A DNA stretch of 17,735 nt from Candidatus Nanopusillus sp. (GTDB lineage Archaea > Nanobdellota > Nanobdellia > Nanobdellales > Nanobdellaceae), in the NCBI GenBank assembly GCA_046536775.1, contig JAWDMD010000010.1, positions 1-17,735 of the forward strand. Direction: 5' to 3'. Numbering within the stretch: the stretch's first letter is position 1; every line of letters begins with the position of its first letter. The notes below the pieces were generated by a model. The model was not told the origin of the DNA, did not search any database, and saw only the letters and a list, made by a program, of their open reading frames with translations. Positions 687 to 15,786 of the stretch are shown in pieces. The position numbers were made by a program, and so were the translations under genes.

Positions 687-1101
687 ATGGCAATTAATAG
701 AGAACAAAGAGTTAGGAGGTTATCTACTAGAGGTATGATATTGGTTTTTATATCATTTTTATTGATGATGACTTTAAACTTTAATTTTCCCTATCCAGAA
801 TTTGCATTATTCTTATTTTTAGCATGTGTTGGTAATGGATTCTTTGTTTACTCAAATACGCCATCTATAATGAATTCTGTACTACCAAATCATAGGGGGA
901 TTGTATTAGTTATGAGAGCAGTAATGGCAAATATAGCAAATGTTATAAGCATTAATTTGCATTTTTCATTATTGCTTTTGCTTTAGAAGCAAAATTGCTG
1001 GAGCTTTATGTTATGGTTTAATATCAGCTTATTTTCTAAATAATATTGCTTATTTAATATCTAAGATACATCATACAGTTGCTCTTTTCGTGGTATTTTA
1101 G
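687..1101 (+). pseudogene. MFS-type transporter remnant (C-terminal ~135 aa only, with a +1 frame break near 960-990)
   Basis: The 99-aa ORF 687-986 is all TM-helix-like and contains ...ACVGNGFFVYSNTPSIMNSVLPNHRGIVLVMRAVMANIANVISI, which looks like the TM10-11 region of an MFS permease. An in-frame stop lies immediately upstream (681-683), so the first ~270 aa of a normal MFS are missing. After the TAG at 984-986, hydrophobic coding continues in the +1 frame from 988 to the TAG at 1099-1101 (SKIAGALCYGLISAYFLNNIAYLISKIHHTVALFVVF). Confidence 0.4.
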
Positions 1102-1497: not shown

Positions 1498-2583
1498 ATG
1501 ATATCAACATTAATTGTAATATTGCTTATAACGTTAATAACGCTAATTACATTACATATTGGGCTACCGATTTTTTACTATTTATACATGAAAAATAAAG
1601 AAGAAGATTTTGAAAAATATATTAATAATGAAATAAGCTATCCATTAGTTTCAATTATAGTTCCAACATATAATGAAGAAAAAACTATAAAGGATAAGAT
1701 TGATGACATATTATCTCAAAATTATCCAAAAGATAAGATTGAAATAATATTGGTTGATTCAAATAGTACTGATAAAACGGTAGAAATAGCAAGTAAATAT
1801 AATGTAAAAATATTAAAGCAAGAGAAGAGGATGGGAAAAGCAAATGCTTTAAACTATGCCTTAGCAAATGCAAAAGGAGAAATTATAATTATAACTGATG
1901 CAGACTCCAAATGGGTTAATAAGGATGCAATAAAAATCTCTGTTGAATTTTTAAACAACAAAAAAATAGGTGCAGTAACATGCATTAAGAAACAATATGA
2001 TGAAAAAATAGAAAAGTCTTATAGAGACTTATATAATGTTATTAGACTAGGTGAAAGCTCTATATTTTCAACTTCAATTGCTCATGGAGAATTCTTTGCA
2101 TTTAAAAAAGAATATCTAACTAACTTCGATGAAAATATGGGAGCCGATGATAGCTATGCGTCTCATAAAATTACTCTTAATAATTTAAGGTCTTTAGCAG
2201 TTAAAGAAATTATTTGTAATGAGTTAGTTCCGAAAAAGGGCTATTTTCATTGGAGAGTTAGGAGAGCCCAGCATTTAGTCCAATATTTTAGTGTTGCAAT
2301 AAAAGATTATAAAAAAATTAGAAATAAAGATTATAAAAAAATAATATTGGTAGAATATTTTTTACATTTGATTAATCCATGGTTACTTTTACTTTCTATA
2401 TTTATAGGGATTTATTTACTGCTATTACACAATCTAATTTCAATAATATTATTTATAATATTTTTAGTTTCATTAATATCTAAAACCGTAAGAACTTGGA
2501 TTTTAACGCAAATATTTTTAATAATTGCCCAAATAAAAAATTTATACAATAAAGAGATTATTTGGGAAAAAGAAGAGAAGTAA
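1498..2583 (+). CDS. membrane-embedded family-2 glycosyltransferase (TM - GT-A domain - C-terminal TM bundle; synthase-like architecture)
   Basis: The 361-aa ORF has an N-terminal TM helix. It then shows the classic GT2 signature VSIIVPTYNEEKTIKDKIDDILSQNYPKDKIEIILVDSNSTDKTVEIA...GKANALNYALANAKGEIIIITDADS (a DxD-type DAD), and later HWRVRRAQH (a weak Q/RxxRW-like motif). The hydrophobic C-terminus has about 3 TM helices. ATG start. Confidence 0.9.
   Translation: MISTLIVILLITLITLITLHIGLPIFYYLYMKNKEEDFEKYINNEISYPLVSIIVPTYNEEKTIKDKIDDILSQNYPKDKIEIILVDSNSTDKTVEIASKYNVKILKQEKRMGKANALNYALANAKGEIIIITDADSKWVNKDAIKISVEFLNNKKIGAVTCIKKQYDEKIEKSYRDLYNVIRLGESSIFSTSIAHGEFFAFKKEYLTNFDENMGADDSYASHKITLNNLRSLAVKEIICNELVPKKGYFHWRVRRAQHLVQYFSVAIKDYKKIRNKDYKKIILVEYFLHLINPWLLLLSIFIGIYLLLLHNLISIILFIIFLVSLISKTVRTWILTQIFLIIAQIKNLYNKEIIWEKEEK
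2302..2342 (+). repeat. in-frame 24-nt-period direct repeat (17-bp perfect core AAAGATTATAAAAAAAT at 2302-2318 and 2326-2342)
   Basis: Read directly from the sequence. The two copies are offset by exactly 24 nt (8 codons) and encode KDYKKI twice (IKDYKKIRNKDYKKII) in the juxtamembrane linker of the 361-aa GT2. Each copy contains an A7 run. Confidence 0.9.
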
Positions 2584-2624
2584 GGTTTATATAATGCTTT
2601 TTTAATTATTAAAATGGTGAAAGT

Positions 2625-3515
2625 TTGTGTAAATTAAACGATATAAATGTTATTATTCCTACATTAAATGAAGAAGATGGAATAGGCCCAACAATAGATG
2701 ATATTTTAAATTATGTTGAAAAAGATGACATTATAGTAGTTGATGGAAATAGCATTGATAATACAAGAAATGAAGTAGAAAAAAGAGGTGTTTTCGTATT
2801 TACGCAAAGCCAGAAAGGGAAGGCAAATGCCATAAAAGAGGCATTAATGCATGTAAAGAAAGATTATATTTTAATCATTGATGGCGATTATACTTACCCA
2901 GCTAAATATTTAATTGATATGCATAAATTAATCAAAAATGATGAATATGATGAAGTAATAGGTGTAAGAAATAGAAAAAACCAAAACATCATATATAGAT
3001 TCGGAAATTGGTTTTTAACAAAATTTTTTGATATATTATTTGGGGTTCATTTAAGAGATGTTTTAAGCGGCATGTATTTAGTAAAAAGAAAAGCTTTAGA
3101 AGGAGCTATTTTTGAGATGAAGGGATTTAGCGTTGAAAGTGAAATAGCAGCACATATGTCTTCTGTTGGAAATAAAATAGGAGAAGTTGATATTGAATAT
3201 AGAGAGAGAAAAGGAAGAAAAAAGTTAGGAATAAGACATGGATTATCAATAGCAATTGATATGGTAAGACTGTCTTGGCGTTATAATCCGGTGATGGTTT
3301 TCTTTTTAGTTGGATCATTATTAATGATTCCAGGAATAATATTAGGCATATACACAGTTATAGATTATGTGTATTTACACATAGATCATTTTGTTAAAGC
3401 CATAATTGCCTTGATTTTAACCGCAACAGGATTCCAAAGTTTGATGCTAGCTGTGTTAAGCACGTATTTAAGGAGAATGGAATACAGGATAAAGAATTAT
3501 TTAAAAGAAAAATGA
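2625..3515 (+). CDS. family-2 glycosyltransferase, polyprenyl/dolichyl-phosphate sugar synthase-like (DPM1/GtrB-type, GT-A domain plus 2 C-terminal TM helices)
   Basis: The 296-aa ORF reads INVIIPTLNEEDGIGPTIDDIL...IIVVDGNSIDNTRNEVEKRG...KGKANAIKEAL...YILIIDGDYTYP (DxD = DGD). Two C-terminal TM helices follow (VMVFFLVGSLLMIPGIILGIY; AIIALILTATGFQSLMLAVL). The TTG start at 2625 is preceded by GGTGA at 2616-2620 with a 4-nt spacer. Confidence 0.85.
   Translation: MCKLNDINVIIPTLNEEDGIGPTIDDILNYVEKDDIIVVDGNSIDNTRNEVEKRGVFVFTQSQKGKANAIKEALMHVKKDYILIIDGDYTYPAKYLIDMHKLIKNDEYDEVIGVRNRKNQNIIYRFGNWFLTKFFDILFGVHLRDVLSGMYLVKRKALEGAIFEMKGFSVESEIAAHMSSVGNKIGEVDIEYRERKGRKKLGIRHGLSIAIDMVRLSWRYNPVMVFFLVGSLLMIPGIILGIYTVIDYVYLHIDHFVKAIIALILTATGFQSLMLAVLSTYLRRMEYRIKNYLKEK
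3503..3512 (-). terminator. candidate oligo-T transcription terminator for the long minus-strand operon
   Basis: On the minus strand, 8-17 nt downstream of the TAG at 3522-3520, the sequence reads TTTTTCTTTT (T5-C-T4). Archaeal RNAP terminates at oligo-T tracts. The tract lies inside the last codons of the convergent GT2 gene. Confidence 0.3.
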
Positions 3516-3519
3516 TAAA

Positions 3520-5238
3520 CTATTTAAATTTATCAAATATATAATCTGTTGGTGTCATCAAAATTACGTTTGATTGAGAAGTTACCATATTTAGATTATT
3601 TAATAAATATGTAACATTTGGATTTATTGAATAGACACCATAGATAAAATATGATAAGGCATATTCATAATAACTAGGAGATGAATTTTCCGTTAAAATT
3701 GAACCATAGTCTACATAATAATAAAAATTAAAGTTTGGAGCAGTATAGTTAGTTATTCCAATTCCAATACCAGCTTCTCCAAACGGTTCACTATCAGGAA
3801 ATGCTACCGTAGAATAACCTGCAAATGTAGCAAATAAAGATAATACTGAGCCAACTATTATAAAAATGATTCCAAATCCTTTTATAATATTTTTAATTTT
3901 CTTTTTATTTAGGTTTTCTTTATCATAAAAAATAATAGACGAAAATGAAAATGCAAGCAATGGAAGTAAATCTTTTGGCAACCTATCAGCCCATCCAACT
4001 CCACCCATCCCGATTACTTGAAATGCTGCTATAGCTCCACTAAATATTAATAAAAGAAAGATTATCTTATATTCTATCTTTTTACTGTTAAAACTTAAAA
4101 TAAAAAGTGTAAAAAATGGGACTGTTAACAAATATATATAATCAATTTCCTTAATTCTAACTGCTAATGCATAAGATGGTAGAGCTCTTATTGATTCAGT
4201 TATTAAGCTACTTGAACTAGGCTTTCTTAGTAGAGCAAATAATGAATTGATGCCGCTAGATATACTAGATAATACATACGTGATATTGGACTGTAATAAA
4301 TTTCCTGATGCATATATTATTCTTAATAAATATGCAATAATAAAAGTTGATAACAAATAAAAAACATTAGACTTTGTTACTATCTTTTGAGGAAATATTA
4401 GTAAAATTAAAGAAATCCCTAGAACTCCAAAGGAAAGCCATAAAGATATGAGTTGATGATTAAACATAGCAAATAAAGACAAAATAAAAAATGTTAAATA
4501 ATCCTTTTTTTCTTGCGATTTTATTGCTTTAATGAAGAATCCAGATGCTAACGCGTATGGTAATAATGCATAATCATTTGAAACAACATAAGAGTATTCA
4601 GATGAAATTATTAAATAAACTATTAATGCTAAAGAAGATTTCCTATCATCAAATCCGTACAGTTTCATAGTTATATAAACTATTGGTATAGATAAAATTA
4701 TGAAAATTGTTGTATACCACTTTAATATGAAATAAAATGGCTGAGAAGTTATGCTATTAGTTTTACCAAATATTAATAATATTATTTCAGCTAATGTTAG
4801 CCAGAATCCCGGTTGAAGAGAAGAATAAGTATTTGGTTCTATATGCCCATAAGTTGTTATATAAGTTGACTGAAAATTATGGTTAAAAGAGTCCTCAAAA
4901 TCAGTCATATAATAATAATTAGAAAAGTCGGGCCAGAAATATCTGAGAAATATTATTAATGAAATAGAATAAATTATTATATAATAGTATTTTTTGTTTT
5001 CGTTTAATGCAAGTAAAGATGCAATAAATAATGTTGATTCCGATAATATTAAAAATATACCTGACATTGGCTCTCTTGATAGAGGGCCGTATATATCATA
5101 AACTCCGTAAACACCCTTTAACCCAGATTCAAACATATAATAAGCATATAATATACCAAATAATGTACCCAAAATAATAAAAAGGTATAGTAAGAATCCT
5201 TTTTTATTTAAATTCAATAACACCACCTGCAATTTCAT
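3520..5238 (-). CDS. large polytopic integral membrane protein (about 12-14 TM plus a Tyr/Asn-rich C-terminal ectodomain); possible GT-C-fold transferase or Wzy-like polymerase
   Basis: The 572-aa ORF is hydrophobic throughout and contains no cysteine. The C-terminal ~90 aa are non-hydrophobic with sequons (NYT, NVT, NSS). It is the last gene of the operon, directly after DUF58. The start is ambiguous: ATG 5238 has no SD, whereas TTG 5217 is preceded by AGGTGGTG (5221-5228). The function is inferred from architecture only. Confidence 0.7.
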   Translation of the reverse strand: MKLQVVLLNLNKKGFLLYLFIILGTLFGILYAYYMFESGLKGVYGVYDIYGPLSREPMSGIFLILSESTLFIASLLALNENKKYYYIIIYSISLIIFLRYFWPDFSNYYYMTDFEDSFNHNFQSTYITTYGHIEPNTYSSLQPGFWLTLAEIILLIFGKTNSITSQPFYFILKWYTTIFIILSIPIVYITMKLYGFDDRKSSLALIVYLIISSEYSYVVSNDYALLPYALASGFFIKAIKSQEKKDYLTFFILSLFAMFNHQLISLWLSFGVLGISLILLIFPQKIVTKSNVFYLLSTFIIAYLLRIIYASGNLLQSNITYVLSSISSGINSLFALLRKPSSSSLITESIRALPSYALAVRIKEIDYIYLLTVPFFTLFILSFNSKKIEYKIIFLLLIFSGAIAAFQVIGMGGVGWADRLPKDLLPLLAFSFSSIIFYDKENLNKKKIKNIIKGFGIIFIIVGSVLSLFATFAGYSTVAFPDSEPFGEAGIGIGITNYTAPNFNFYYYVDYGSILTENSSPSYYEYALSYFIYGVYSINPNVTYLLNNLNMVTSQSNVILMTPTDYIFDKFK

Positions 5239-6361
5239 TGAAAGAACTAAAAACTTTTGACCCTAATTCTTTGATTTTGTTCAAGTTTTTTTCATACATT
5301 TTCCTTATATTGTAAGATGTTTCTATATCATCTATGTAAACCCAAGGTTTAGTGGGTTGAATTATATAAGCTTTTGGATATTTAAAGGCTAGTTCGCTTA
5401 AAATTTGAGTTAGAATAATATACCTGTCTTCTTTGCTATTTGTATTAAAATTATCTTTCTTTTTATTTTTCAAATAATCATAGATATCTTTAAAATCTAA
5501 TACTCTATTTATTTCTGGATAATACTTTTTCATCATATCAACTATGTATATGAAAGCGGAATAAACATCTTTTCTAAGATTTTTAATATTTTGGCCATCG
5601 TAAACATAAATATTTCCCTGGAACAAGTTTGAATACTTAATCAAATTTAATGCTTCTGTTGCTAGATCATCAGCTGAATTTTCATCGGTAGATTCTAAAT
5701 CTATTATAATTCCTATATTACCGTAAAGATCCCAATAGTATCTCTTAACCATTATGTCATTATATTTTGCTGTTTTTTTCCAATCTATTCTCCTAAAATC
5801 ATCATTATTACTAAATTTATCAGTATATGCAAATTCTTCTCCTCTACCTATTATATTTGATTGTGATGTAAATCCTTTGGAAAAATAAGTTTGCAATTCT
5901 TTAAATAGTAAAAAAGACTTGGGATATACTGTTAATCTTATTTTAGGCCTTATTAACACTTCTATCTTTTTCTCGAATAAAATAGACCTATATAATACAT
6001 GAAGTTTATTAATTTCATAGATACCAGATCTTAGACCCCTTATTTTTAAATTTATTCTAAATTTATTAAAATCACTTTTTGTATTAATTATTAAACTAAC
6101 AAAATTGTATGGAGAAATAATTTTAATTTTTTTATTATAGCTATAATATAGTGGAATTTCTACTTCTTCACCCCTAAATAACTCAACATTGTTTATGGGC
6201 GATTCAAAATAAAATCTTGGTTTCATGAAAAATAAAAAAGTATAGTCTATTAATATAAACAAAAGAAATGCTAAAGAAACGTATATAAAATCATAAATTT
6301 TAAATGCGACTCCAGTTCCTAATACAATTAAGGAAAAAAATAAAAATAATTCATATCTCAA
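5204..6361 (-). CDS. DUF58-family protein (MoxR partner), N-terminally membrane-anchored
   Basis: The 385-aa ORF has two N-terminal TM helices. It carries the DUF58 hallmark GRGEEFAYTDKFSNNDDFRRIDWKKTAKYNDIMVKRYYWD (codons at 5729-5848), compared with the recalled consensus G.G.eF...R.Y.pGD..R.IDWkatAr...l.vre. The TTG start at 6361 overlaps the MoxR stop (TTGA), with AGGTG at 6370-6374. Confidence 0.8.
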   Translation of the reverse strand: MRYELFLFFSLIVLGTGVAFKIYDFIYVSLAFLLFILIDYTFLFFMKPRFYFESPINNVELFRGEEVEIPLYYSYNKKIKIISPYNFVSLIINTKSDFNKFRINLKIRGLRSGIYEINKLHVLYRSILFEKKIEVLIRPKIRLTVYPKSFLLFKELQTYFSKGFTSQSNIIGRGEEFAYTDKFSNNDDFRRIDWKKTAKYNDIMVKRYYWDLYGNIGIIIDLESTDENSADDLATEALNLIKYSNLFQGNIYVYDGQNIKNLRKDVYSAFIYIVDMMKKYYPEINRVLDFKDIYDYLKNKKKDNFNTNSKEDRYIILTQILSELAFKYPKAYIIQPTKPWVYIDDIETSYNIRKMYEKNLNKIKELGSKVFSSFNEIAGGVIEFK

Positions 6362-7278
6362 ATTTTAGGCACCTTTATCTTTTTCAATACTATTTCTATT
6401 AAGGAATCTGCATTTAATTCTTGGCTAAATATTCTATGCCTTAATACAGGAAATGCAGCTTTTTTCACATCATCTGGAATAACAAAGTCTCTTCCATTAA
6501 GATAAGCAATTGCTCTAGAAATTTTATAAAACCAAATAGAAGATCTAACGCTTATCGCATCGTTTATATCATTTTTCCTTAGTTCATTTAGGATATCTAG
6601 CATATAGTTTGCTACATTATCATTAACTTTAACACTTTTAACCTCTTCTCTCATAATTCTTAAATCTTCAATTGAAACTATTTTTTCTACTATAGGTTTA
6701 TCAATACTATCAATTTTTCTTAGTATTTCCAATTCTTTGTCTCTATCTGGCATTTTAATAATGATTTTTGATGAAAATCTATCTAATTCAGTAATGGTTA
6801 AAGGAAATATACCTCCAGTATCGTTAGGCACTTCAGTGGCTATTATAAAAAATGGATCTGGAAGCGATAGAGTGTTAATATCAATTGTTACCTGTTTTTC
6901 TTGCATTGCTTCTAATAATGCAGATTGGGTTCTAGGAGGTGCCCTATTAATTTCATCTATTAGTATTATGTTGCTAAATATTGGTCCTTTTCTTATTCTG
7001 AACTCTTTTTTTTCCAGATCCCAAACTAATGTGCCTAATATATCTGATGGTAATAAATCTGAAGTCATCTGAATTCTTTTAAAATCAACTCCAATAGCTT
7101 GAGAAAATAACTTGGCTAGTGTTGTTTTACCTAATCCTTGCGTTCCTTCAAGAATAACATGGCCTTCTGATATAAGATTAGCCAATAGAATTTCTATAGA
7201 ATCCTCACCACCTATATAATACTTAGATATTTCATTTACTATTTTTTCTTTAATATTTAAAGCCTTATTTGGATTCAT
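6358..7278 (-). CDS. moxR: MoxR-type AAA+ ATPase (AAA_3 family)
   Basis: The 306-aa ORF has Walker A ILEGTQGLGKTT (7120-7146), the MoxR-typical FKRIQMTSDLLPSDILG, Walker B IILIDEINRAPPRTQSALLEAMQEKQVT, the Arg-finger region ELDRF, and the sensor-2/lid region SVRSSIWFYKISRAIAYLNGRDFVIPDDVKKAAFPVLRHRI. Confidence 0.92.
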   Translation of the reverse strand: MNPNKALNIKEKIVNEISKYYIGGEDSIEILLANLISEGHVILEGTQGLGKTTLAKLFSQAIGVDFKRIQMTSDLLPSDILGTLVWDLEKKEFRIRKGPIFSNIILIDEINRAPPRTQSALLEAMQEKQVTIDINTLSLPDPFFIIATEVPNDTGGIFPLTITELDRFSSKIIIKMPDRDKELEILRKIDSIDKPIVEKIVSIEDLRIMREEVKSVKVNDNVANYMLDILNELRKNDINDAISVRSSIWFYKISRAIAYLNGRDFVIPDDVKKAAFPVLRHRIFSQELNADSLIEIVLKKIKVPKI

Positions 7279-8185
7279 TATTTTTCTCCTCTAAAATTTC
7301 ATTTATAAGATTCTTATCCCAATCGGGGTGTTCTTTCATTATTTTATTTATATTATAGGAATTATTAACTTTTGCCTCTTCTTTTAAGCTATAAACAAAA
7401 ATTGAAGCAATGAAAAATGTCGATAATAAAATTATTTGCATGTAAAGTTGAGAAATAAATTTTGATAAATTATTAATTTGTATTTTTAAAAAAAGATATG
7501 GTGTTTCGTTTTGAAGAAAAGTTGCAATATAATATTTTTCTCCATTTGTTAAGTTAAAGAAGAATTTTTGGTTATTTCCTAAATTAAATACATAATTTAA
7601 TATAAAATAAGGGTCTGATATAACAATTATTTTACCCTTGTTTATGTATTCTTCAGAAGAAACAGTAAATGGTCCATATATTAAATTTGATCCATTTTTT
7701 ATGTAACTGAAAAAAGAAGTATTAGCTATTGGAGTGCCGTTGTTTAAATACGATGTATAAAATAAAACTAATTTCTCCTTATTGTTAGTTAATGCTAAAG
7801 GGAAAATATTTGACTTATAATTAAATATATCATCATAAACAATTTCATTATTTGTAATAATATTTCCCCCAAGTAATTTAATTAACCCATTAACTAAATT
7901 TCCATCACCAAATATAATAATTTCATTCCCATTTTTTAAAAAGTTATTAAGATTTTGTATATCCTTATTTGTAGGCATTTTCTCTGGATTTACTATTACT
8001 AATACTCCATTAAAATTAAGCATCGAGCTTGAAGTTATCAGTCCAGAAGAATTTTTATACAATGAAGAAATACCATTCCATCCATTATTAAATGGTGAAA
8101 AGGGTTGAGTATTTGGAAAATAAGAAATTAAAATCAACATAACAAAAATAAACGTAATTAACCCTATATTAATTTTTGAGATCAT
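7265..8185 (-). CDS. DUF4350-like bitopic ectoprotein (N- and C-terminal TM anchors, glycosylated middle)
   Basis: The 306-aa ORF begins with an N-terminal TM helix. It then reads NNGWNGISSLYKN...FNGVLVIVNPEKMPTNKDIQNLNNFLKNGNEIIIFGDGN and later GKIIVISDPYFILNYVFNLGNNQKFFFNL. This matches my recollection of DUF4350 (G..al..ll...tlvv..P...e...L..fv..GG.lvl ... vvvl.D...l.N..l...gNa.f.lnl). It has at least 7 sequons and a C-terminal TM helix. The ATGA overlap with the upstream gene is at 8182-8185, and GGGTGAT lies at 8191-8197. Confidence 0.6.
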   Translation of the reverse strand: MISKINIGLITFIFVMLILISYFPNTQPFSPFNNGWNGISSLYKNSSGLITSSSMLNFNGVLVIVNPEKMPTNKDIQNLNNFLKNGNEIIIFGDGNLVNGLIKLLGGNIITNNEIVYDDIFNYKSNIFPLALTNNKEKLVLFYTSYLNNGTPIANTSFFSYIKNGSNLIYGPFTVSSEEYINKGKIIVISDPYFILNYVFNLGNNQKFFFNLTNGEKYYIATFLQNETPYLFLKIQINNLSKFISQLYMQIILLSTFFIASIFVYSLKEEAKVNNSYNINKIMKEHPDWDKNLINEILEEKNNESK

Positions 8186-10020
8186 TTAAAATCACCCAAT
8201 AAAAGAGTAATTAATTCATCGAATTCATTATAATTTAACCCAAAACCATAAATTTCCCTTTCAAGTAAACTTAATAATCTCGATATTTTTTCTTTAGAAA
8301 TAATTTTGGTATTTAAAATTTTAAAATACTCTCTAAGAGTCATTGAATCTTCCAAAATTAACCCGTAATTAAAGTAAATATTGCTGACAAATTTTGAAAA
8401 TGCATCACTTAATATTTTCTTTCTAGTTGATAATATCTCAGGGGTTTTGTTATTCTTCTCTACCTCATTACTTATATTCTTACTTTCCTTTTTTCTTTCT
8501 TTATCATAAATATACTTCAGAGAAGATAATAAAATTGCAGTCCCTAAAACCAATGCTATTGGATTTATAATAAAAACCTCTCTGCTTTCTGAAATTTGAG
8601 AAAAATAACTTTCATTGGGGATTAATAGTAATGTAACGTTTATATGGGAATTCATATATGTTGGAGGAATAGTAATTTTAGCTTGAAATTCCCCTTTTGA
8701 ATTAGTTTTTGTAATAATATTATTTCCTAAATAGCTTATTTTTATCACTGAATTATTTAAATAAGTATTATTAAAATAAGCCACGCCCTTTATTGTTATT
8801 GTTTCTCCAGAAAGTGCTGTTTTAGCCATAGTAAAGTTAATTTTTGGTATAAGTCTGTAAACGTTAATATTAGTTACAAACTGTGCTTTATTGTATATCC
8901 TATTTGACGGTAAAATAAATATTAAGGTATAATTGCCATTAGGTATATCTGGTATTAACAAATTTGTTGAAAAATTATTATTACTTATATTTATCACTTT
9001 TATTAAATTAATTTGTCTAATGTAAATTATTATAGATTTATTAATATAAGGACTTATGTTGAGCAATATCCCATATATTTTTAAATATGTATTGGGTAAA
9101 ATCTTAGTCTTATTTATATGAATTTCAATTTTAGGATTAATAAACAGATTTTTTATGCATATAATTGAAGAATTTTCATGCAAATAATTATATAATTTGT
9201 TAGGTATAAATATTGCATAAATGCAAGTTTTATTATCATAGATATAAGGTATTTTGTAATTATATGAAAATTGTCCATAAGAATTTGTTGTTACATTTAT
9301 TGAATAATCTGGAAAAATCAATTCTACAGTTGCATTACTTATATAGTTATGTAAATATGTTACATTACCATAAATTCTTGTTACATTACCAACCCATGCT
9401 TCAGTTACGTTTGAATATAAATTAACAGTTACATTACCTTTATACGAATTAATTTTTTCCATTAGTTGGTTTATTTGATATGTTAAATTACCTTCAGAAA
9501 TTTCAATTTCATTTAGTCCTTTTTGTAAATAATTGTAAGGGCCTATGCTATTATATATTTCAGAATAAAGATCAGATAACCATATAGTAGAGTAATTTGC
9601 ATTTTCAATTGATTTAAAAGCTTTTTTAGATAAATTATATGCGTAGGATACATTACCTATATTTAAGTAATAATAGCCTAAACTTATGTTTTCCTTTGTT
9701 TCGTTTAATTGATTTATAATTAAATCAAGAAATATATTAACCCTATTAATTAAATTTTCTATGTTTTGATTTATTAATACAGAATTATTAATGCTTTTTA
9801 GAATTAATTTTGAATAAGAATAATTTTGCAAATAAGCCTCATGCATAACTTTATAGTAAGCTAGTGAGAACAATATATTTTGTTGACTAACATGAACATT
9901 AATGTTAAATAAGTTTTTATAATTATAAAAATAAATAGCTGGTAAAGCGATGCTTATACCTATAATAAATAGTAAAAACAGTGAAATTAAAACATTATAT
10001 TTTTGGTAAGTTGAAACCAA
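8182..10020 (-). CDS. large glycosylated bitopic surface protein: helical N-domain, three beta-sandwich-like repeats, TM helix, cytoplasmic DUF4129-like tail
   Basis: The 612-aa ORF has TM1 at about aa 10-32 and TM2 at about aa 487-505. I count 27 N-x-S/T sequons between the two TM helices. Three ~90-aa repeats each contain a ...N(S/N)xG(Q/E)F...IP... core (TNSYGQFSYNYKIP; ISNNNFSTNLLIPDIPNGNYTL; TNSKGEFQAKITIP) and end in NPKI/IPKI/IINP. The C-terminal MTLREYFKIL...ISRLLSLLEREIYGFG resembles the DUF4129 consensus (TPREY....L..L..lYE.aRYG). The TTG start at 10020 has GAGGTG at 10031-10036. Confidence 0.65.
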   Translation of the reverse strand: MVSTYQKYNVLISLFLLFIIGISIALPAIYFYNYKNLFNINVHVSQQNILFSLAYYKVMHEAYLQNYSYSKLILKSINNSVLINQNIENLINRVNIFLDLIINQLNETKENISLGYYYLNIGNVSYAYNLSKKAFKSIENANYSTIWLSDLYSEIYNSIGPYNYLQKGLNEIEISEGNLTYQINQLMEKINSYKGNVTVNLYSNVTEAWVGNVTRIYGNVTYLHNYISNATVELIFPDYSINVTTNSYGQFSYNYKIPYIYDNKTCIYAIFIPNKLYNYLHENSSIICIKNLFINPKIEIHINKTKILPNTYLKIYGILLNISPYINKSIIIYIRQINLIKVINISNNNFSTNLLIPDIPNGNYTLIFILPSNRIYNKAQFVTNINVYRLIPKINFTMAKTALSGETITIKGVAYFNNTYLNNSVIKISYLGNNIITKTNSKGEFQAKITIPPTYMNSHINVTLLLIPNESYFSQISESREVFIINPIALVLGTAILLSSLKYIYDKERKKESKNISNEVEKNNKTPEILSTRKKILSDAFSKFVSNIYFNYGLILEDSMTLREYFKILNTKIISKEKISRLLSLLEREIYGFGLNYNEFDELITLLLGDFK

Positions 10021-10273
10021 TTGAATTTAACACCTCAAGTGCAGCTATAAACAAAAATAATAAAAGTAAGGTGAAGCCTAACAAAGTTATTTTAATTTTT
10101 GATGTTAATACTCTATATGATAAAAAATAAGAAATTGCATATAATCCTAAATATGGACCTAAAACTTCTATATTTAAAAGTGTTAATGATATGAAACCTA
10201 GTGAAATTAAAATTGATAGAATTATAACAAATTTCTTTTGTTTATTCAATTTTAATAACCTCCGCTCTAACAA
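9995..10273 (-). CDS. small 3-TM membrane protein (84-92 aa), unknown function
   Basis: The ORF is hydrophobic throughout. The track start TTG 10273 lacks an SD, whereas TTG 10249 is preceded by GGAGGT (10258-10263, 8-nt spacer) and gives MNKQKKFVIILSIL.... It overlaps both neighbours. Confidence 0.55.
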   Translation of the reverse strand: MLERRLLKLNKQKKFVIILSILISLGFISLTLLNIEVLGPYLGLYAISYFLSYRVLTSKIKITLLGFTLLLLFLFIAALEVLNSIGFNLPKI

Positions 10274-10931
10274 TGATTCCTTGATCCGACTTTATCTCTT
10301 CTATTAATCTTACTGGTTTTCTATAATAGGTGGAGAGAGCACTTAAAGTTATACTTGTTTCTAAAGACCCTAGACATTTATAATATCTAGGAATGTTTAA
10401 ATAACGTCCTTTAGGTTCATTTATATTAACTGTTATTAAATTATTTTCCTTTAATATTTTTACATTGCTAGCCAAATTTAAATCATCAACAATTATGCTG
10501 TTTATCCATGATTCATCACTTACTTTATAATTATATTCAACCTTATGAAAAGGAGGGAAAATAATTATGCCTAAATCATTTGAAACCCTTAGAGGTATCT
10601 TCTTTATATAATCAACTAAATAATAATAATTTTCATCTTCCTTATATGGAATAAATGCTATATTTCTATCATCTTTTTCCGTGTATATAGCCTTACCTAA
10701 AGTATTATATTCTTCCAATAATGCTTCTATATTTAATACAGATGATTCTATCATTTTTCTTAAAGTATATGGTAATATATTGTTATCATCGATACTAAAA
10801 GATGATAGACCAATAACTAATATACCTAATGATACGTAAAACATTTCCATATAGTTTAGGATAAATATGGAAAAGACTGATAATGGAATAGATATAATTA
10901 TTAATATTAATCCAAGTTCTTTAACTTTCAT
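10242..10931 (-). CDS. membrane-anchored protein of unknown function (2 N-terminal TM helices plus a ~170-aa soluble domain)
   Basis: The 229-aa ORF has an ATG start and contains no family motif that I recognise. The soluble part has almost no sequons, which suggests it faces the cytoplasm. It sits in an operonic position and overlaps both neighbours. Confidence 0.6.
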   Translation of the reverse strand: MKVKELGLILIIISIPLSVFSIFILNYMEMFYVSLGILVIGLSSFSIDDNNILPYTLRKMIESSVLNIEALLEEYNTLGKAIYTEKDDRNIAFIPYKEDENYYYLVDYIKKIPLRVSNDLGIIIFPPFHKVEYNYKVSDESWINSIIVDDLNLASNVKILKENNLITVNINEPKGRYLNIPRYYKCLGSLETSITLSALSTYYRKPVRLIEEIKSDQGIIVRAEVIKIE

Positions 10932-11508
10932 TTTTTATTACCCATCTAATTTTTTCATATTGGTATTTTCTATACTTAGCTATAAACAATACTGCAAGCG
11001 TAAAAATATAAATTGATATAGAAACACTATATACATTTAGACCTATTGGTAGTAAATTTAAAATTAAACCCAATAGTGGTAAAATAGCTAAACTCATGCC
11101 TATTGATAATGCACCTCTTTCCAGTTCGCTCCATTCTTCTTTTTTAGGATAGATGCTTTCAATAATTCCATAACCAGGATAAAAAAACAACAAAGGTGAA
11201 ACAACTATGCCTTTTATTAATATATATTTATTGCTCATTAAGATCGATGAAATTAATGATAGAGTTATTACTATAATAGAAAACAAATACCAAGAATTTT
11301 CTATAGAAAAGAAATAAGAGATAAAGCTCCTTTTTTTATTTTCCACTAGCTTAATTTTATTCTCTTGTATTAAATAATAAATTTGTCTTGAGAATTCAAC
11401 TTTATTAATTTTTCCATGTTTTTCTTCTAAATACTTTAATATTTCTTTTATCCTTGTTTTTTCCAAATTTTTGTTCAAATAATTCAAAATATCTTCTTCA
11501 AAAGACAA
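10921..11508 (-). CDS. wHTH-like N-terminal domain fused to a DUF1616-like membrane core
   Basis: The 195-aa ORF has residues 1-57 (MSFEEDILNYLNKNLEKTRIKEILKYLEEKHGKINKVEFSRQIYYLIQENKIKLVE) that look like a small winged-helix domain. Residues ~100-180 read LLFFYPGYGIIESIYPKKEEWSELERGALSIGMSLAILPLLGLILNLLPIGLNVY. This matches my recollection of the DUF1616 membrane signature (lF.PGYal..alfP.k..l..iER.alS.glSla..pl.gl.LN..p.Gi). The TTG start at 11508 has GGTGG at 11516-11520. Confidence 0.6.
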   Translation of the reverse strand: MSFEEDILNYLNKNLEKTRIKEILKYLEEKHGKINKVEFSRQIYYLIQENKIKLVENKKRSFISYFFSIENSWYLFSIIVITLSLISSILMSNKYILIKGIVVSPLLFFYPGYGIIESIYPKKEEWSELERGALSIGMSLAILPLLGLILNLLPIGLNVYSVSISIYIFTLAVLFIAKYRKYQYEKIRWVIKNES

Positions 11509-11510
11509 TT

Positions 11511-11984
11511 TTATGCCACCGTAGAGTTTATATATAATTGATTATATAATCCAGTAAAAACAAAATTTGTACCATTAAACATATATAGCAAAATAACTAT
11601 TTTATAATCTCCTTGTTTGTTAAAAGTTACATTAAAAGGAATAGTATCATTTTGGTTATTGTTTATTAGATCGTAAAATACATAATAAGGTTTCCAATTA
11701 GGATAATGCGTTGAATTGACTATAAAAGAAGAATTAACTATATAAATCTTTATTTGGTATAATGCTATTTTGTTTTCATGGTTTTCTATATATACGTACA
11801 GACTTGTTGAAGAATTAACTGGAACTTGGCTTGGATATCCGCCAAGCTCTTTATTATCGTTTAGTAAAGCTAATAAACTATATGGACCAGGTTTCCAATA
11901 ACTCATGGCAAAATTTATTGAAATTATTACAGCTATAATAATAAAAAATCCTGTAGTGAAATTCCTTATCTTTTTGTCAATCAT
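11511..11984 (-). CDS. N-terminally anchored ectoprotein resembling the extracellular (C-terminal) part of DUF1616 proteins
   Basis: The 157-aa ORF has one N-terminal TM helix. It then reads YSLLALLNDNKELGGYPSQVPVNSSTSLYVYIENHENKIALYQIKIYIVN, which resembles the recalled DUF1616 segment (.eFYiL.....a..YP..l..ge...l.vgI.NhE.....Y.l.v). It has several sequons. The ATG at 11984 has a strong SD, GAGGTGA, at 11991-11997. Confidence 0.5.
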   Translation of the reverse strand: MIDKKIRNFTTGFFIIIAVIISINFAMSYWKPGPYSLLALLNDNKELGGYPSQVPVNSSTSLYVYIENHENKIALYQIKIYIVNSSFIVNSTHYPNWKPYYVFYDLINNNQNDTIPFNVTFNKQGDYKIVILLYMFNGTNFVFTGLYNQLYINSTVA

Positions 11985-12423
11985 TTTTCTTCACCTCATA
12001 GTTTTCATGAGTTTTAAGCCATAACCACCAATAGATTGAAGTTAAGTATTTATATGATAAATATGAAAAAACTAAAAATACAATAATGATAAAAATATTC
12101 TCTATTAATTTTATGTAATATTGCGTCTCTGCTTCATTTAAGATCTTCTGTCCATTTAATGATATATTTTTAGATATAATGTAGGAGTTCATACAAGAAG
12201 TTTCATTATTATAATTTATGCCTGTATTTAAATAATTGATAGATTCCTTAAGATTAATTATATAGTCAGAACTATAGCCAAGTGATGAGGCTTTTGCTAA
12301 ATAGTTATATGAGTTTTCAACTTCTATTAAACTTTGATTGCAAGTAATTGTTAATGCATTTGCCTTAATTGATACGAATAATATAAGAAATATAGGTATT
12401 ATTTGAAGTATTTTTTTGTTCAT
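11977..12423 (-). CDS. small secreted, C-terminally anchored protein (signal peptide, helical Asn/Tyr-rich domain with 2 Cys, C-terminal TM helix)
   Basis: The 148-aa ORF starts MNKKILQIIPIFLILFVSIKANA, which is signal-peptide-like. Its only two cysteines (C28, C77) lie in the ectodomain, and it has sequons NQS, NET, NIS. The C-terminal TM helix is IFIIIVFLVFSYLSY. It is the first gene after the 100-bp gap. Confidence 0.6.
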   Translation of the reverse strand: MNKKILQIIPIFLILFVSIKANALTITCNQSLIEVENSYNYLAKASSLGYSSDYIINLKESINYLNTGINYNNETSCMNSYIISKNISLNGQKILNEAETQYYIKLIENIFIIIVFLVFSYLSYKYLTSIYWWLWLKTHENYEVKKND

Positions 12424-12523
12424 GCATACCCCCTTTTAGTATTTTTTCCTTTATATTATAAATTTTTAGATTTATAAATAACGCAATACCGAAATTTTAT
12501 TTGTACATTTTATTAAATAAATT
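12424..12523 (-). promoter_or_regulatory. only sizeable intergenic gap inside the minus-strand block; candidate internal promoter
   Basis: The palindromic TATA-like ATTTATAAAT lies at 12470-12479, 47-56 nt upstream of the ATG at 12423. A second TATA-like TTTATAATATAAA (minus-strand reading) lies at 12450-12462. GGGGGT (complement of 12429-12434) lies 5 nt upstream of the ATG. There is no strong oligo-T tract after the upstream stop, so read-through is also possible. Confidence 0.35.
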
Positions 12524-13174
12524 TTATTTAGTTATTACAGTTCCATCTTTTATATAATATAATTTATCTGGTAAATCCTCTATTAAATAAGGAGATGAAA
12601 AAATAATAATTTTATTTTCTTCTTTAAATTTTCTAATTAATTTTCTGATTATTTCTTCTCCTGTTTCATCTTGACTGGAAAATGGCTCATCCAAGACTAA
12701 TAATTTTGGATCCTTAATTATGGAAGAGGCTATGCACACCCTTTGTCTTTCTCCCCCACTTAATTTGTCTATATCCTCATATTCTAAGCCTTCAAGTCCG
12801 AAATCTTTAATTAGTTTAATTGCTTTATTAAATGCTATTTTTTTGTCAACTTTCTTAAGGATTAACGGTAACATAATGCTTTCTATAACGTTGTTACCTT
12901 TTATTAGCCTGTAATCTTGCTCAACATATCCTATATAGTTTAATCTAATCTTTGCTAGTTTTGAATCATTAAATGAACTTATATCGATGTTGTTAAATAT
13001 TATTTTTCCTCTAGTTGCTTTCTCTATTAATGAAATAATTTTCAGAAGAGTTGATTTTCCAGATCCATTCTTTCCATATATTTCTATTAAGCTACCTTCT
13101 TCTAGCTTTAAGTTAATATTTTTTAACACGATTTTTCCGTTTCTTTCATAAAAAACATTTTCTAAAACCATCAT
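12524..13174 (-). CDS. ABC transporter ATP-binding protein (MacB/LolD-like NBD) with a non-canonical H-loop
   Basis: The 216-aa ORF has Walker A GKNGSGKST (13049-13075), a Q-loop (VEQD), the ABC signature LSGGERQR and Walker B LLVLDEP. The D-loop reads SSQD. The expected switch-His position reads IIIFSSPY (12587-12601) and has no His. GGTGA at 13181-13185 lies 6 nt upstream of the ATGATG start. Confidence 0.93.
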   Translation of the reverse strand: MMVLENVFYERNGKIVLKNINLKLEEGSLIEIYGKNGSGKSTLLKIISLIEKATRGKIIFNNIDISSFNDSKLAKIRLNYIGYVEQDYRLIKGNNVIESIMLPLILKKVDKKIAFNKAIKLIKDFGLEGLEYEDIDKLSGGERQRVCIASSIIKDPKLLVLDEPFSSQDETGEEIIRKLIRKFKEENKIIIFSSPYLIEDLPDKLYYIKDGTVITK

Positions 13175-13180
13175 ATAATT

Positions 13181-14719: not shown

Positions 14720-15786
14720 AGGGACCACCTTATATTTATAAAAGTACTTATTGAAGATATAATAAATATTGAGAGAGTAGAGATTACTATTTCTTCATTA
14801 ATTTGTGGTATTAAATATAAACCCAAGATATTTACAATTACAAATTTACTAAAACAATAATATAATAATATTGAAATAGGAATTGATGCAATAAAAGATA
14901 AAAGATTGATAATTATCGAAATTACTGCCAAATTAACCTTTGAGATTCCATAAAAATGTAGCAACTCTAAGTTATCTTTTTCAGTTAAAACCAGCACTTC
15001 CCCATTTATATAAGAGCCTATTGATAGAATTATTATAGAGGCTATAGCTAGAGATGTAAAAGCAATCTTTGGGATTCCTAACTTGTTATAATAAACTTCT
15101 GATATTTGATTTAGTTCTTGTTGTAATTTTTGATTATTTAAATTTTCTACTATTAATGTAGCCTTTTCTAATAAGCTGGTTTCTTCGCTTGGCATTTGTA
15201 ATGCCTTCATAACATTTATTTTATATGAATTGTTAACTAAATTTATTATAGCGATTGAAGCTAAATTATTATTAATTCCATTTCCATGGATTTGATACGC
15301 TATATTATTACTAACCTCTATTCCAAAAGATAAATTTTTTTCAAAACCACATATAATCAATTCTATAGGTAAATTAGAAAATGCAGGATAAACTATAAGC
15401 GTTTGATTAATTTTTAGATTCATCATTTTTTTAACAGTAATGCTTGGATACGCACAATAATTATTATAATCTTTATATCCTATGAATGCAATGTCTTTAC
15501 CATTTACATTTCCTAAAGATAATATAATAAATTGAATATTTTTTATTCCAGAAACATTATTAAGTTTAGTCAATAAATTTTCCTTGTTTATTAATGAAGT
15601 AAAAGGAGATAATGAATAACTAGTTATAATAATTCCATTATTTCCTAAAGAATTAATTTCGTTGTAAATATTATAGAGTCCAATAACCTCTGATGATATA
15701 ATAAGAGAAGAGGTTTCTATAGCAACAAAAATTAATACTAATAAAATTATAGTATATTTTCTAAATCCTTTAAATGCTCTAATCAT
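14716..15786 (-). CDS. FtsX/MacB-like ABC permease, long ectodomain (~205 aa)
   Basis: The 356-aa ORF has a basic N-terminus plus TM1 (FKGFRKYTIILLVLIFVAI) and a sequon-bearing ectodomain at about aa 35-240. Three C-terminal TM helices follow, with the FtsX-type intracellular motif LTEKDNLELLHFYGISKVNLAVI (compare the recalled ER.rEiGiLkAlGa....I). AGGTG lies at 15794-15798. Confidence 0.7.
   Translation of the reverse strand: MIRAFKGFRKYTIILLVLIFVAIETSSLIISSEVIGLYNIYNEINSLGNNGIIITSYSLSPFTSLINKENLLTKLNNVSGIKNIQFIILSLGNVNGKDIAFIGYKDYNNYCAYPSITVKKMMNLKINQTLIVYPAFSNLPIELIICGFEKNLSFGIEVSNNIAYQIHGNGINNNLASIAIINLVNNSYKINVMKALQMPSEETSLLEKATLIVENLNNQKLQQELNQISEVYYNKLGIPKIAFTSLAIASIIILSIGSYINGEVLVLTEKDNLELLHFYGISKVNLAVISIIINLLSFIASIPISILLYYCFSKFVIVNILGLYLIPQINEEIVISTLSIFIISSISTFINIRWSL

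Follow-up and report, generated by a model that had tools for sequence, protein, structure and literature searches.

A Caldisphaera copy of a predicted envelope complex of archaea, arCOG01314 (DUF4350)–MoxR–DUF58, with a nine-gene conserved core

The gene cassette on the window, the 17,735-nucleotide stretch of DNA analyzed here, is best read as the Caldisphaera version of a predicted archaeal envelope complex that combines arCOG01314 (DUF4350), MoxR, and DUF58. Four minus-strand ORFs with overlapping ends at positions 5204–10020, which the earlier note had taken to be the whole module, form part of a conserved core of nine genes, namely, p148, two DUF1616 halves, p229, p92, the 612-aa protein, DUF4350, MoxR, and DUF58, whose order is kept in the Thermoproteota loci sampled. 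The earlier note had also regarded the client of this MoxR as not one of the known types; however, the neighborhood was published in 2015 and is annotated by PGAP in haloarchaea. [quoted passage not shown] Our analysis adds a DUF58 domain that is probably cytoplasmic, an HP[DE]W[DN] tail on DUF4350, and a putative DUF4129 tail that links the cassette to the bacterial MoxR–DUF58–transglutaminase operons.

All genes described below lie on the minus strand. The first gene of the core, p148 (11977–12423), encodes a protein with a signal-peptide-like N terminus, a small ectodomain, and a C-terminal transmembrane segment (TM). DUF1616 is split in the window into two swapped ORFs, with Pfam E values of 5e-21 and 1e-8 for the two halves. 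The p157 protein (11511–11984) consists of a TM anchor and the sequon-rich, Ig-like ectodomain half (profile positions 162–286), and p195 (10921–11508) contains the transmembrane half (profile positions 4–120) preceded by an extra, probably cytoplasmic winged-helix domain (aa 1–65), which is conserved in all orthologs and is a weak call (E 3e-3 to 6e-3). [quoted passage not shown] The nine-gene order is kept in Caldisphaera lagunensis, Saccharolobus islandicus, a Sulfolobaceae isolate, and a Crenarchaeota metagenome-assembled genome (MAG). Matching portions of the core also occur on partial contigs of three further origins, a Desulfurococcales MAG, a Bathyarchaeota MAG, and an uncultured archaeon; the short Bathyarchaeota contig shows only the last four genes. 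The core families also co-cluster in haloarchaea, including Halogeometricum.

Downstream, the stop of DUF58 is overlapped by p572 (3520–5238), a polytopic membrane protein with at least nine TMs, for which the Pfam search gave no family and which is kept after DUF58 in Caldisphaera. An upstream block (12524–16645) comprises an ABC ATPase (12524–13174) and the polytopic membrane proteins p515, p356, and p288, all three of which have loops that contain sequons. The genes around the core in Caldisphaera encode an ABC ATPase, polytopic membrane proteins, and glycosyltransferases. Genes for glycosylation adjoin the cassette in four lineages, and whether the cassette includes the ABC transporter and glycosyltransferases varies among lineages.

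The previous domain calls and gene order for MoxR and DUF58 hold in the Pfam search and the ORFs. MoxR (6358–7278; 306 aa), whose ORF shares 14 nt with the end of the DUF4350 ORF, is a soluble AAA+ ATPase that matched AAA_3 (E 1e-51) and AAA_lid_2, retains intact Walker A, Walker B, and arginine finger motifs (GTQGLGKT, ILIDEINR, and LDRF), and aligned with the MoxR of PDB 2r44 over aa 9–305 (E 1.5e-65). The DUF58 protein (5204–6361; 385 aa) has hydrophobic segments at 5–23 and 28–46, which form an N-in 2-TM hairpin, followed by an Ig-like β-sandwich (aa 58–146), the DUF58 motif (DDFRRIDWKKTAK), and a MIDAS-less α/β domain. Its Pfam DUF58 score was 23.1 bits, in the motif region only, against a cut-off of 23.4, and its orthologs scored 28.5–37.3 bits. 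A comparison of the window DUF58 family with a haloarchaeal DUF58 using hhalign gave 97% probability (E 1e-10), and this haloarchaeal homolog has an overlapping VWA_2 signal. In the AF2 model, pLDDT was about 80 for the Ig-like part, which alone was matched by Foldseek, and below 60 for the C-terminal α/β part, where only the succession of helices and strands hints at a vWA fold. None of the nine DUF58 orthologs has the DxSxS MIDAS motif; after the first β-strand they show D-L-E-S-T, D-I-R-S-P, D-E-R-A-P, or S-N-Y-N-I, and a Pfam search of the window gave no VWA match. The literature treats DUF58 as the vWA-class partner of MoxR (PMC5898192, Table 2; PMC3495828). The earlier statement that no VWA MIDAS protein is present thus stands for the motif but is misleading about the partner, since DUF58 is itself a degenerate, MIDAS-less vWA-type partner of MoxR.

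The DUF4350 protein (7265–8185; 306 aa) consists of a TM, a GldG/IFT52-like ectodomain (GIFT, flavodoxin-like), a second TM, and a 38-aa cytoplasmic tail, with hydrophobic segments at 5–23 and 244–268. The earlier family call is borne out by a Pfam score of 31.6 bits, over the cut-off of 30.4, and ABC_transp_aux (GldG-like) scored 30.8 bits, slightly under its own cut-off. Against PDB, the family profile matched IFT52 (E 1e-3) and Wbp1/OST48 (E 0.014). The tail contains an HPDWD motif (7316–7330), a candidate docking peptide, that is invariant in 11 Thermoproteota/Bathyarchaeota homologs and occurs as HPDWDE in Halogeometricum and HPEWNE in L011; the HP[DE]W[DN] motif is thus conserved from Thermoproteota to Halobacteria. 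None of the searched papers that name DUF4350, the name rather than the motif phrase being the search term, has this motif as its subject.

The 612-aa protein (8182–10020) is bitopic, with hydrophobic segments at 11–29 and about 486–505. Its N-terminal TM is followed by a helical ectodomain (about aa 46–192), three Ig-like β-sandwich domains (aa 197–485), the second TM (about aa 486–511), a K/E-rich linker, and a cytoplasmic tail (aa 528–608; 8197–8439) that AF2 predicts to be a four-helix bundle. The model showed pLDDT values of 80–93 across the β-sandwiches, and its Foldseek matches were tandem Ig/MG/adhesin/S-layer domains only. In line with the earlier note, no Cys-His-Asp core of transglutaminases was found: Pfam was blank, with no Transglut_core match among the operon proteins, and the model contained only helices and the three β-sandwich domains. 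The proposed DUF4129-like tail fared less simply. Pfam DUF4129 (PF13559; gathering threshold, 24.8 bits) gave nothing at E ≤ 1 on the window's own protein, but the collinear ortholog L006:4625-6457, which aligned with it across the tail (BLASTP, 6e-28), scored 27.1 bits at aa 533–599. Because this ortholog passes the threshold in exactly the aligned region, we regard the tail as probably DUF4129-like, as judged by orthology. The Bathyarchaeota ortholog (L004) scored 22.9 bits and P0020, a short protein whose gene immediately precedes DUF4350 in another cassette and thereby takes the place of the 612-aa gene, 14 bits; P0020 was recovered by an exhaustive search of 1.8 billion proteins with a tail-only profile. 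It is the tail that is conserved in the 612-aa family, with the motifs T-[LVI]-R-E-[YF] and E-x-x-[LVI]-Y-[GS]. The top non-self match of an extended tail profile was the Halogeometricum DUF4129 region (E 0.21), the link to haloarchaeal DUF4129 being weak in sequence.

The inside/outside layout given by the earlier note agrees with both the sequon statistics and the charge flanks. Sequons mark potential sites, not demonstrated glycosylation, and pooled counts were 44/884 for outside and 5/1037 for inside regions (odds ratio 10.8, P=1e-10). In the 612-aa protein, 27 of the 29 sequons sit between the TMs, compared with 9.5 expected from composition for this ectodomain (P<0.0005). The p157 ectodomain has seven (2.2 expected, P=0.0005), and p157-type DUF1616 ectodomains across orthologs have 38 (9.7 expected). 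For the DUF4350 ectodomain, the enrichment was not significant in the window alone (7 versus 4.8 expected), and 39 sequons were found across orthologs against 24 expected. MoxR has one sequon, and the soluble part of DUF58 has none (2.8 expected, P=0.047). DUF58 and p229 are both membrane-anchored, with positive charges flanking and a bulk without sequons; for DUF58, these traits and the 2-TM hairpin suggest that the domain is probably cytoplasmic and not secreted. By contrast, Makarova et al. placed vWA/DUF58 outside, as "likely secreted". Sequon-rich Ig-like, GIFT-like, or helical ectodomains occur in four to five proteins (the 612-aa protein, DUF4350, the DUF1616 Ig half, and p148). Two of these proteins cross back into the cytoplasm, where their conserved tails contain the four-helix DUF4129-like bundle and the HPDWD peptide, respectively.

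All four features of the 2015 system that were examined are found in the window: a membrane-anchored DUF4350 protein with a flavodoxin/GldG-like ectodomain, a MoxR/GvpN ATPase, an Ig-like and vWA (DUF58) protein, and DUF1616 (arCOG02884; pfam07760) with further Ig-like "S-layer-like" proteins and small 2–5 TM proteins, here p92 and p229. DUF4129 is not mentioned in that paper. Among bacterial systems, the MoxR–DUF58–transglutaminase operons (YebA/TgpA type; Bifidobacterium PFNA cluster) likewise have MoxR then DUF58 beside a membrane protein with an extracytoplasmic domain. TgpA itself presumably ends in a C-terminal DUF4129. The mycobacterial Rv3689-Rv3695 cluster has the order DUF4350–MoxR–DUF58 in Rv3691-3693, which are co-regulated in M. 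chelonae; in Streptomyces, DUF4129 and DUF58 lie within four genes of each other, and the Bifidobacterium cluster includes an FN3 β-sandwich protein. The window differs from these operons in its Ig-like-repeat ectodomains, in having no transglutaminase or peptidase, and in its archaeal extras (DUF1616, p229, p92, and p148); without the Cys-His-Asp core, it is not a YebA/TgpA operon. Bat-type MoxR (MRP) operons (BatA-E; Borrelia BB0170-0176) share MoxR then DUF58 and membrane-anchored partners but have MIDAS-containing vWA/TPR proteins, whereas the window operon has no TPR protein and no MIDAS (DxSxS...T...D), which excludes a canonical Bat-type MoxR–vWA pair. Nor does it resemble a MoxR–vWA conflict/defense system (bpMoxR ternary): PADLOC gave only weak generic P-loop matches for MoxR, bpMoxR scored 28.5 bits, far weaker than AAA_3, and the operon showed no propeller, kinase, or effector.

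We assign a probability of about 0.5 to the reading of the cassette as an arCOG01314 (DUF4350)–MoxR–DUF58 envelope complex as a whole, including the following steps. By analogy with other MoxR–vWA pairs, a MoxR hexamer would dock on the membrane-tethered, MIDAS-less vWA-like DUF58 adaptor, which may engage the tails that the ectoproteins extend into the cytoplasm. Hydrolysis of ATP would then serve to assemble an extracellular glycoprotein scaffold or to switch its oligomeric or conformational state, and the scaffold may take part in biogenesis or remodeling of the cell envelope (S-layer or surface glycan), possibly with the neighboring ABC transporter and glycosyltransferases. Transmission of ATP-driven remodeling across the membrane is plausible and indistinguishable here from one-time assembly chaperoning.

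A sharpened form of the 2015 model would instead make the complex an exporter that secretes or assembles a surface protein or glycoconjugate. DUF4350 would be the auxiliary, GldG-like subunit of an exporter of the ABC type, an extracellular conduit or scaffold would be built from the Ig-like and DUF1616 proteins, and MoxR/DUF58 would act only as an assembly chaperone or regulator. The published prediction (PMC5898192), the ABC_transp_aux score, the GIFT-domain relatives IFT52 and Wbp1/OST48, and the nearby glycosyltransferase and dTDP-sugar genes favor this idea, as does the ABC ATPase with polytopic membrane proteins that immediately precedes the core in Caldisphaera and, as annotated, in Haloferax. 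In a comparison with GldA/GldF/GldG, an ABC_tran ATPase is present and the GldG-like match falls just under threshold; however, Pfam recognized no ABC permease family for p515, p356, or p288. The ABC genes are also missing from the Saccharolobus, Sulfolobaceae, and Crenarchaeota-MAG cassettes, no cargo candidate was found, and the conserved cytoplasmic tails would go unexplained, so we consider an exporter possible but unlikely.

Signaling in the opposite direction appears still less probable. The extracellular Ig-repeat and GIFT domains would act as receptors for a signal from the envelope or the environment, and the tails would pass it to MoxR–DUF58 and an output such as the membrane-tethered winged-helix p195, analogous to MoxR–vWA threat-sensing. 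The Esr pathway of Actinomycetota, which links a surface sensor with Ig repeats to MoxR, vWA, and transglutaminase, is a precedent (bioRxiv 10.64898/2026.09.08.750141), the probable winged-helix domain of p195 is kept in all orthologs, and the Haloferax cluster adjoins shape-regulating genes. Against this, Pfam detected no kinase, phosphatase, FHA, propeller, or effector domain in the operon, the ectodomains have no variable sensor module such as a β-propeller, and the weakness of the winged-helix call and of the PADLOC matches also counts. Membrane-proximal degradation or quality control, in which MoxR unfolds substrates recruited by DUF58, has been proposed for MoxR–vWA–YebA/TgpA transglutaminase operons, with which the cassette shares the MoxR–DUF58 pair and the DUF4129 tail (PMC3495828); Haloferax annotation also lists HVO_1941 as MoxR and HVO_1943 as an endoisopeptidase/DUF4129 protein. 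We find this very improbable for the window, as Pfam revealed no peptidase or transglutaminase domain in any cassette protein, and AF2 and Foldseek none in the 612-aa protein.

Haloarchaeal relatives of the envelope complex lie on Halogeometricum borinquense pHBOR01 (HBOR_RS15055-15085) and in Haloferax volcanii (HVO_2163-HVO_2173, including the annotated ABC transporter HVO_2163-2165), in the order DUF4350, MoxR, two hypothetical proteins, DUF58, a DUF4129 protein, and DUF1616. The DUF4129 protein combines an MG4 β-sandwich with a C-terminal DUF4129 and has no transglutaminase (PGAP), and the DUF4350 tail has HPDWDE, like the window motif. These clusters differ from the window in gene order and strands, in an unsplit DUF1616, in a DUF58 score of 71 bits, and in their neighbors, which are giant surface proteins, a tubulin/FtsZ-family gene, or the rdfA/sph3/ddfA shape genes instead of glycosyltransferases. 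N-glycopeptides have been found experimentally in Haloferax for HVO_2167, HVO_2172, and HVO_2173 (PMC8241124), which by position correspond to DUF4350, the DUF4129 protein, and DUF1616, with the orthology of HVO_2167 and HVO_2172 based on gene order only. MoxR3 (HVO_2168) and the adjacent ABC transporter were more abundant in disk-shaped cells (PMC10869688), and this correlative proteomics, together with gene adjacency, links the HVO_2163-2173 region to cell shape.

The window has a G+C content of 25%, and a genome-contig scan, which returned six loci, showed it to be 100% identical to a contig of the Caldisphaera sp. MAG F8S.bin.6. Fourteen minus-strand ORFs run from 16645 down to 3520 with ends that overlap or almost abut, the sole gap being approximately 100 nt (12424–12523). 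Within this run, ORF calls confirmed the four genes named in an earlier note, namely, those for a 612-aa protein (8182–10020), a DUF4350 protein (7265–8185), MoxR (6358–7278), and a DUF58 protein (5204–6361). They are present as described, but the module that they were thought to form is larger: it is a nine-gene order shared with other lineages, p148–DUF1616 Ig half–DUF1616 TM half–p229–p92–612-aa protein–DUF4350–MoxR–DUF58, whose first five genes lie at 9995–12423. The complete order was found in Caldisphaera lagunensis (45–55% identity), Saccharolobus islandicus L.D.8.5, a Sulfolobaceae isolate, and a Crenarchaeota MAG. Truncated or divergent contigs showed parts of it: one each from a Desulfurococcales MAG and an uncultured archaeon, and a Bathyarchaeota contig that covers just the final four core genes.

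In Caldisphaera, the core is preceded by genes for an ABC ATPase and three polytopic membrane proteins and followed by one for a polytopic 572-aa protein. The preceding block (12524–16645, minus strand), in which p515, p356, and p288 (515, 356, and 288 aa) lie upstream of the ABC ATPase, is conserved in C. lagunensis. Two of the three polytopic proteins have one N-terminal TM segment, a loop bearing sequons (potential N-glycosylation sites), and a C-terminal TM cluster, which is an FtsX/MacB-like layout; these two had no Pfam match, and sequence and profile searches of the PDB found nothing for p515. The 572-aa protein p572 (3520–5238, minus strand), whose gene shares 35 nt with the end of the DUF58 gene, has nine or more hydrophobic segments, and its C-terminal region carries sequons. 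C. lagunensis also encodes it after DUF58, and Saccharolobus has a relative near its cassette; p572 had no Pfam, NCBIfam, or PDB match, and a GT-C-like glycosyltransferase or polymerase is only a guess. The operon diverges from genes (1498–3515, plus strand) for two glycosyltransferases of family 2 that have C-terminal TM segments. A homolog of the first lies within the C. lagunensis cluster, and one of the second lies directly after DUF58 in the Crenarchaeota MAG.

The earlier note had held that the client of this MoxR is not of a known type. This claim did not stand, because the neighborhood of arCOG01314 (DUF4350) was already described in 2015 by Makarova, Galperin, and Koonin with MoxR, an Ig+vWA protein, DUF1616 (arCOG02884), Ig-like S-layer-like proteins, and small membrane proteins, and was predicted to encode a secretion or membrane-remodeling complex (PMC5898192); a 2019 review says likewise. 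The window cassette is a further member of this known, predicted, and uncharacterized system, not a new kind. In Halogeometricum pHBOR01, DUF4350, MoxR, DUF58, a DUF4129 protein, and DUF1616 stand side by side (PGAP annotation), the DUF4129 protein having an MG4 beta-sandwich and a C-terminal DUF4129 without a transglutaminase. The order is matched by the annotated run of Haloferax volcanii, HVO_2163–2165 (ABC), HVO_2167, HVO_2168 (MoxR3), HVO_2171 (DUF58), HVO_2172, and HVO_2173 (DUF1616). As in Caldisphaera, an ABC ATPase, here annotated together with two permeases, precedes the Haloferax cassette. N-glycopeptides were found on HVO_2167, 2172, and 2173 (PMC8241124). Disk-shaped cells contain more of both MoxR3 and the ABC transporter, and hvo_2160–2176 has been called a region important for shape regulation (PMC10869688). 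On pHBOR01, a tubulin/FtsZ-family gene (17183–18361) adjoins DUF1616, and its position is occupied in Haloferax by the shape genes rdfA/sph3/ddfA. As for bacteria, MoxR–vWA(DUF58)–transglutaminase operons have been described as very common (PMC3495828), DUF4350–MoxR–DUF58 (Rv3691–3693) is co-regulated in M. chelonae, DUF4129 lies four genes from DUF58 in Streptomyces, and the PFNA cluster of Bifidobacterium has an FN3 protein in addition. In the literature searched, DUF4129 appeared with DUF4350, DUF58, or MoxR in a single paper, and there only in a gene table, and was not found named as a coupling element.

The product of 6358–7278 is unambiguously a MoxR protein; it matched AAA_3 (E 1e-51), AAA_lid_2, and PDB 2r44 (E 1.5e-65), and its Walker A, Walker B, and arginine finger are all intact. 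The 306-aa protein (7265–8185) passed Pfam DUF4350 (31.6 bits against a cut-off of 30.4) and almost reached the GldG-type ABC_transp_aux model, and its family profile gave weak PDB matches to IFT52 (E 1e-3) and the OST subunit Wbp1/OST48 (E 0.014). GldG, IFT52, and OST48 are related through the "GIFT" domain, and the weak matches agree with this relationship and with the glycosylation-rich neighborhood. Beyond the Pfam model, the 38-aa cytoplasmic tail carries an HPDWD motif (7316–7330, minus strand). All 11 aligned homologs, which range from Bathyarchaeota to Sulfolobaceae, carry it unchanged; its counterpart is HPDWDE in Halogeometricum and HPEWNE in a further lineage (locus L011).

The 385-aa protein fell slightly short of the DUF58 cut-off (23.1 against 23.4 bits), with the match covering the signature DDFRRIDWKKTAK region, and its orthologs scored 28.5 to 37.3 bits. 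Its family aligned with the haloarchaeal DUF58 protein at an hhalign probability of 97%; the latter scored 71 bits on DUF58, with a weak overlapping VWA_2 match. An AF2 model from a five-sequence alignment comprised two TM helices, a confident Ig-like sandwich, and a low-confidence C-terminal beta-alpha domain, whose modeled order of elements is compatible with a vWA/Rossmann-like fold. Foldseek of this model against the PDB recovered the Ig-like domain only, without a match for the vWA/Rossmann-like fold, and PDB searches with the crenarchaeal profile or the haloarchaeal protein found nothing. The DxSxS motif of the MIDAS is absent from all nine aligned orthologs, as the earlier reading of a missing MIDAS had it.

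The DUF4129 tail ascribed to the 612-aa protein was supported by way of an ortholog and not in the window protein itself, which had no Pfam or NCBIfam match of its own (nothing for DUF4129 at E ≤ 1). A C-terminal block, AF..F...LE..MTLREYF...LLE[KR]EIYG.GL, is kept in five close homologs, and the motifs T-[LVI]-R-E-[YF] and E-x-x-[LVI]-Y-[GS] also occur in Saccharolobus, Desulfurococcales, the Crenarchaeota MAG, and the uncultured archaeon. The ortholog from the latter (locus L006), which aligns collinearly to aa 81–598 of the window protein (BLASTP 6e-28), passed Pfam DUF4129 with 27.1 bits precisely in the aligned tail, and the Bathyarchaeota ortholog scored 22.9 bits. An exhaustive HMMER search of 1.8 billion representatives with a five-sequence tail-only profile gave only six matches and did not reach bona fide DUF4129 families. 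Two of the six (P0018 and P0019) were low-complexity false positives; another, P0020, had a weak DUF4129 match, and in a further cassette its gene directly precedes that for DUF4350. The tail profile did not match the Halogeometricum DUF4129 protein significantly by hhalign, and with an extended 10-sequence HMM the tail of that protein was the top non-self match, though only at E 0.21. Because of the L006 pass, the Bathyarchaeota score, P0020, and the motif conservation, we accept the tail as DUF4129-like, probably through remote homology. In the AF2 model of the protein, a TM helix is followed by a helical ectodomain of low confidence, three confident beta-sandwiches (pLDDT 80–93), another TM helix, a K/E linker that is disordered, and a four-helix tail (pLDDT 70–79). 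Foldseek matched only tandem Ig, macroglobulin, adhesin, and S-layer-type domains and found no papain/transglutaminase fold, in line with the claim that a transglutaminase is missing here. Protein-homolog searches returned only 5 to 11 relatives each for the 612-aa, DUF4350, and DUF58 proteins; deep alignments were therefore impossible.

Sequon counts and charge bear on sidedness. In the 612-aa ectodomain, 27 sequons were counted where its own composition predicts 9.5; the corresponding figures are 7 and 2.2 for the DUF1616 Ig half and 0 and 2.8 for DUF58, and MoxR has one. Between pooled putative outside and inside regions, the difference is tenfold (P=1e-10), and the pattern is also seen across orthologs. 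DUF58 orthologs have a K/R-rich N terminus and post-TM2 segment with a short, uncharged inter-TM loop, indicating an N-in/C-in hairpin; in the 612-aa protein, a K-rich stretch that follows TM2 puts the tail on the cytoplasmic side. The soluble part of DUF58 comprises aa 47–385, and the tails of the 612-aa and DUF4350 proteins comprise aa 512–612 and 269–306. This evidence supports the inside/outside layout first proposed, and the components of the cassette and their sidedness are taken as shown. The probable cytoplasmic location of DUF58, supported by these sequence features, disagrees with the "likely secreted" assignment of the vWA/DUF58 protein in 2015 (PMC5898192). It is a refinement worth keeping, and so are the DUF4129-like tail, as a link to the transglutaminase operons of bacteria, and the HP[DE]W[DN] motif conserved in the DUF4350 tail.

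DUF1616 is encoded by two ORFs in swapped order (10921–11984, minus strand), the Ig-like half first (Pfam profile 162–286) and the TM half second (4–120). This arrangement is kept in Caldisphaera, Saccharolobus, Sulfolobaceae, the Crenarchaeota MAG, and the uncultured archaeon; in L011 and haloarchaea, DUF1616 is one unsplit gene. Ahead of the TM half, p195 has a conserved winged-helix-like domain (aa 1–65; 11314–11508, minus strand) with weak matches to Z-alpha 1sfu (E 3e-3), MCM4_WHD (E 6e-3), TBPIP, and PqqD, and it is probably a cytoplasmic, membrane-tethered wHTH.

MoxR proteins have established vWA partnerships in RavA–ViaA, CbbQ–CbbO, NorQ–NorD, and midasin. By analogy with these pairs, the MoxR ring would bind DUF58 as an adaptor tethered to the inner face of the membrane, without a metal site. 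Conservation and position suggest that the clients may be the DUF4129-like bundle and the HPDWD peptide, and that ATP hydrolysis may assemble or switch the ectoprotein scaffold. The scaffold might serve envelope or surface-glycan biogenesis because glycosyltransferases, dTDP-sugar genes, and an ABC transporter lie nearby and because of the Haloferax proteomics. Alternatively, the neighboring ABC ATPase and the near match to GldG could belong to an ABC/GldG-type export machine with MoxR as its assembly chaperone. The complex could also be an outside-in sensor with the probable winged helix of p195 as its output; in Actinomycetota, an Ig-repeat surface sensor signals via MoxR and vWA (2026 preprint, bioRxiv 10.64898/2026.09.08.750141). 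A further alternative is a degradation system, for which a peptidase is missing here.

Returning to client handling by MoxR–DUF58, we tentatively propose, at a probability of about 0.2, that DUF4129 and the HP[DE]W[DN] peptide serve MoxR–DUF58 machines in general as cytoplasmic client handles and that the archaeal complex is an inside-out actuator. If so, archaeal Ig-repeat ectoproteins and bacterial TgpA-type transglutaminases would have these handles in common, and cytoplasmic ATP hydrolysis would pull on or reorganize the tails to switch a glycoprotein scaffold outside the cell, by which the S-layer or envelope is shaped. The adjacency to cell-shape genes in Haloferax would then be explained, and the published extracellular-vWA model would have to be inverted. 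Among prokaryotic AAA+ modules that still have no known client, MoxR–DUF58 pairs rank with the most widespread. The layout supplies concrete candidates, namely, two ectoproteins with conserved cytoplasmic tails, and a testable topology with DUF58 inside the cell, unlike the published cartoon. Genetically tractable hosts, S. islandicus and H. volcanii (HVO_2167–2173), carry orthologous cassettes, and the question of client and topology is therefore directly addressable. In S. islandicus, the cassette lies at 953–964 kb of CP001731.

Membership of the cassette in a defense system was rejected, as PADLOC gave only weak generic P-loop matches. No tRNA or Rfam features were found in the window. A 111-aa ORF antisense to the MoxR gene (6737–7072, plus strand) was dismissed as spurious, since it lies wholly inside a strongly supported gene; most likely, it arose by chance in AT-rich sequence. 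A 99-aa ORF (687–986, plus strand) matches the MFS_1 model over only its final ~75 positions (E 6e-4) and may be the remnant of a transporter gene.
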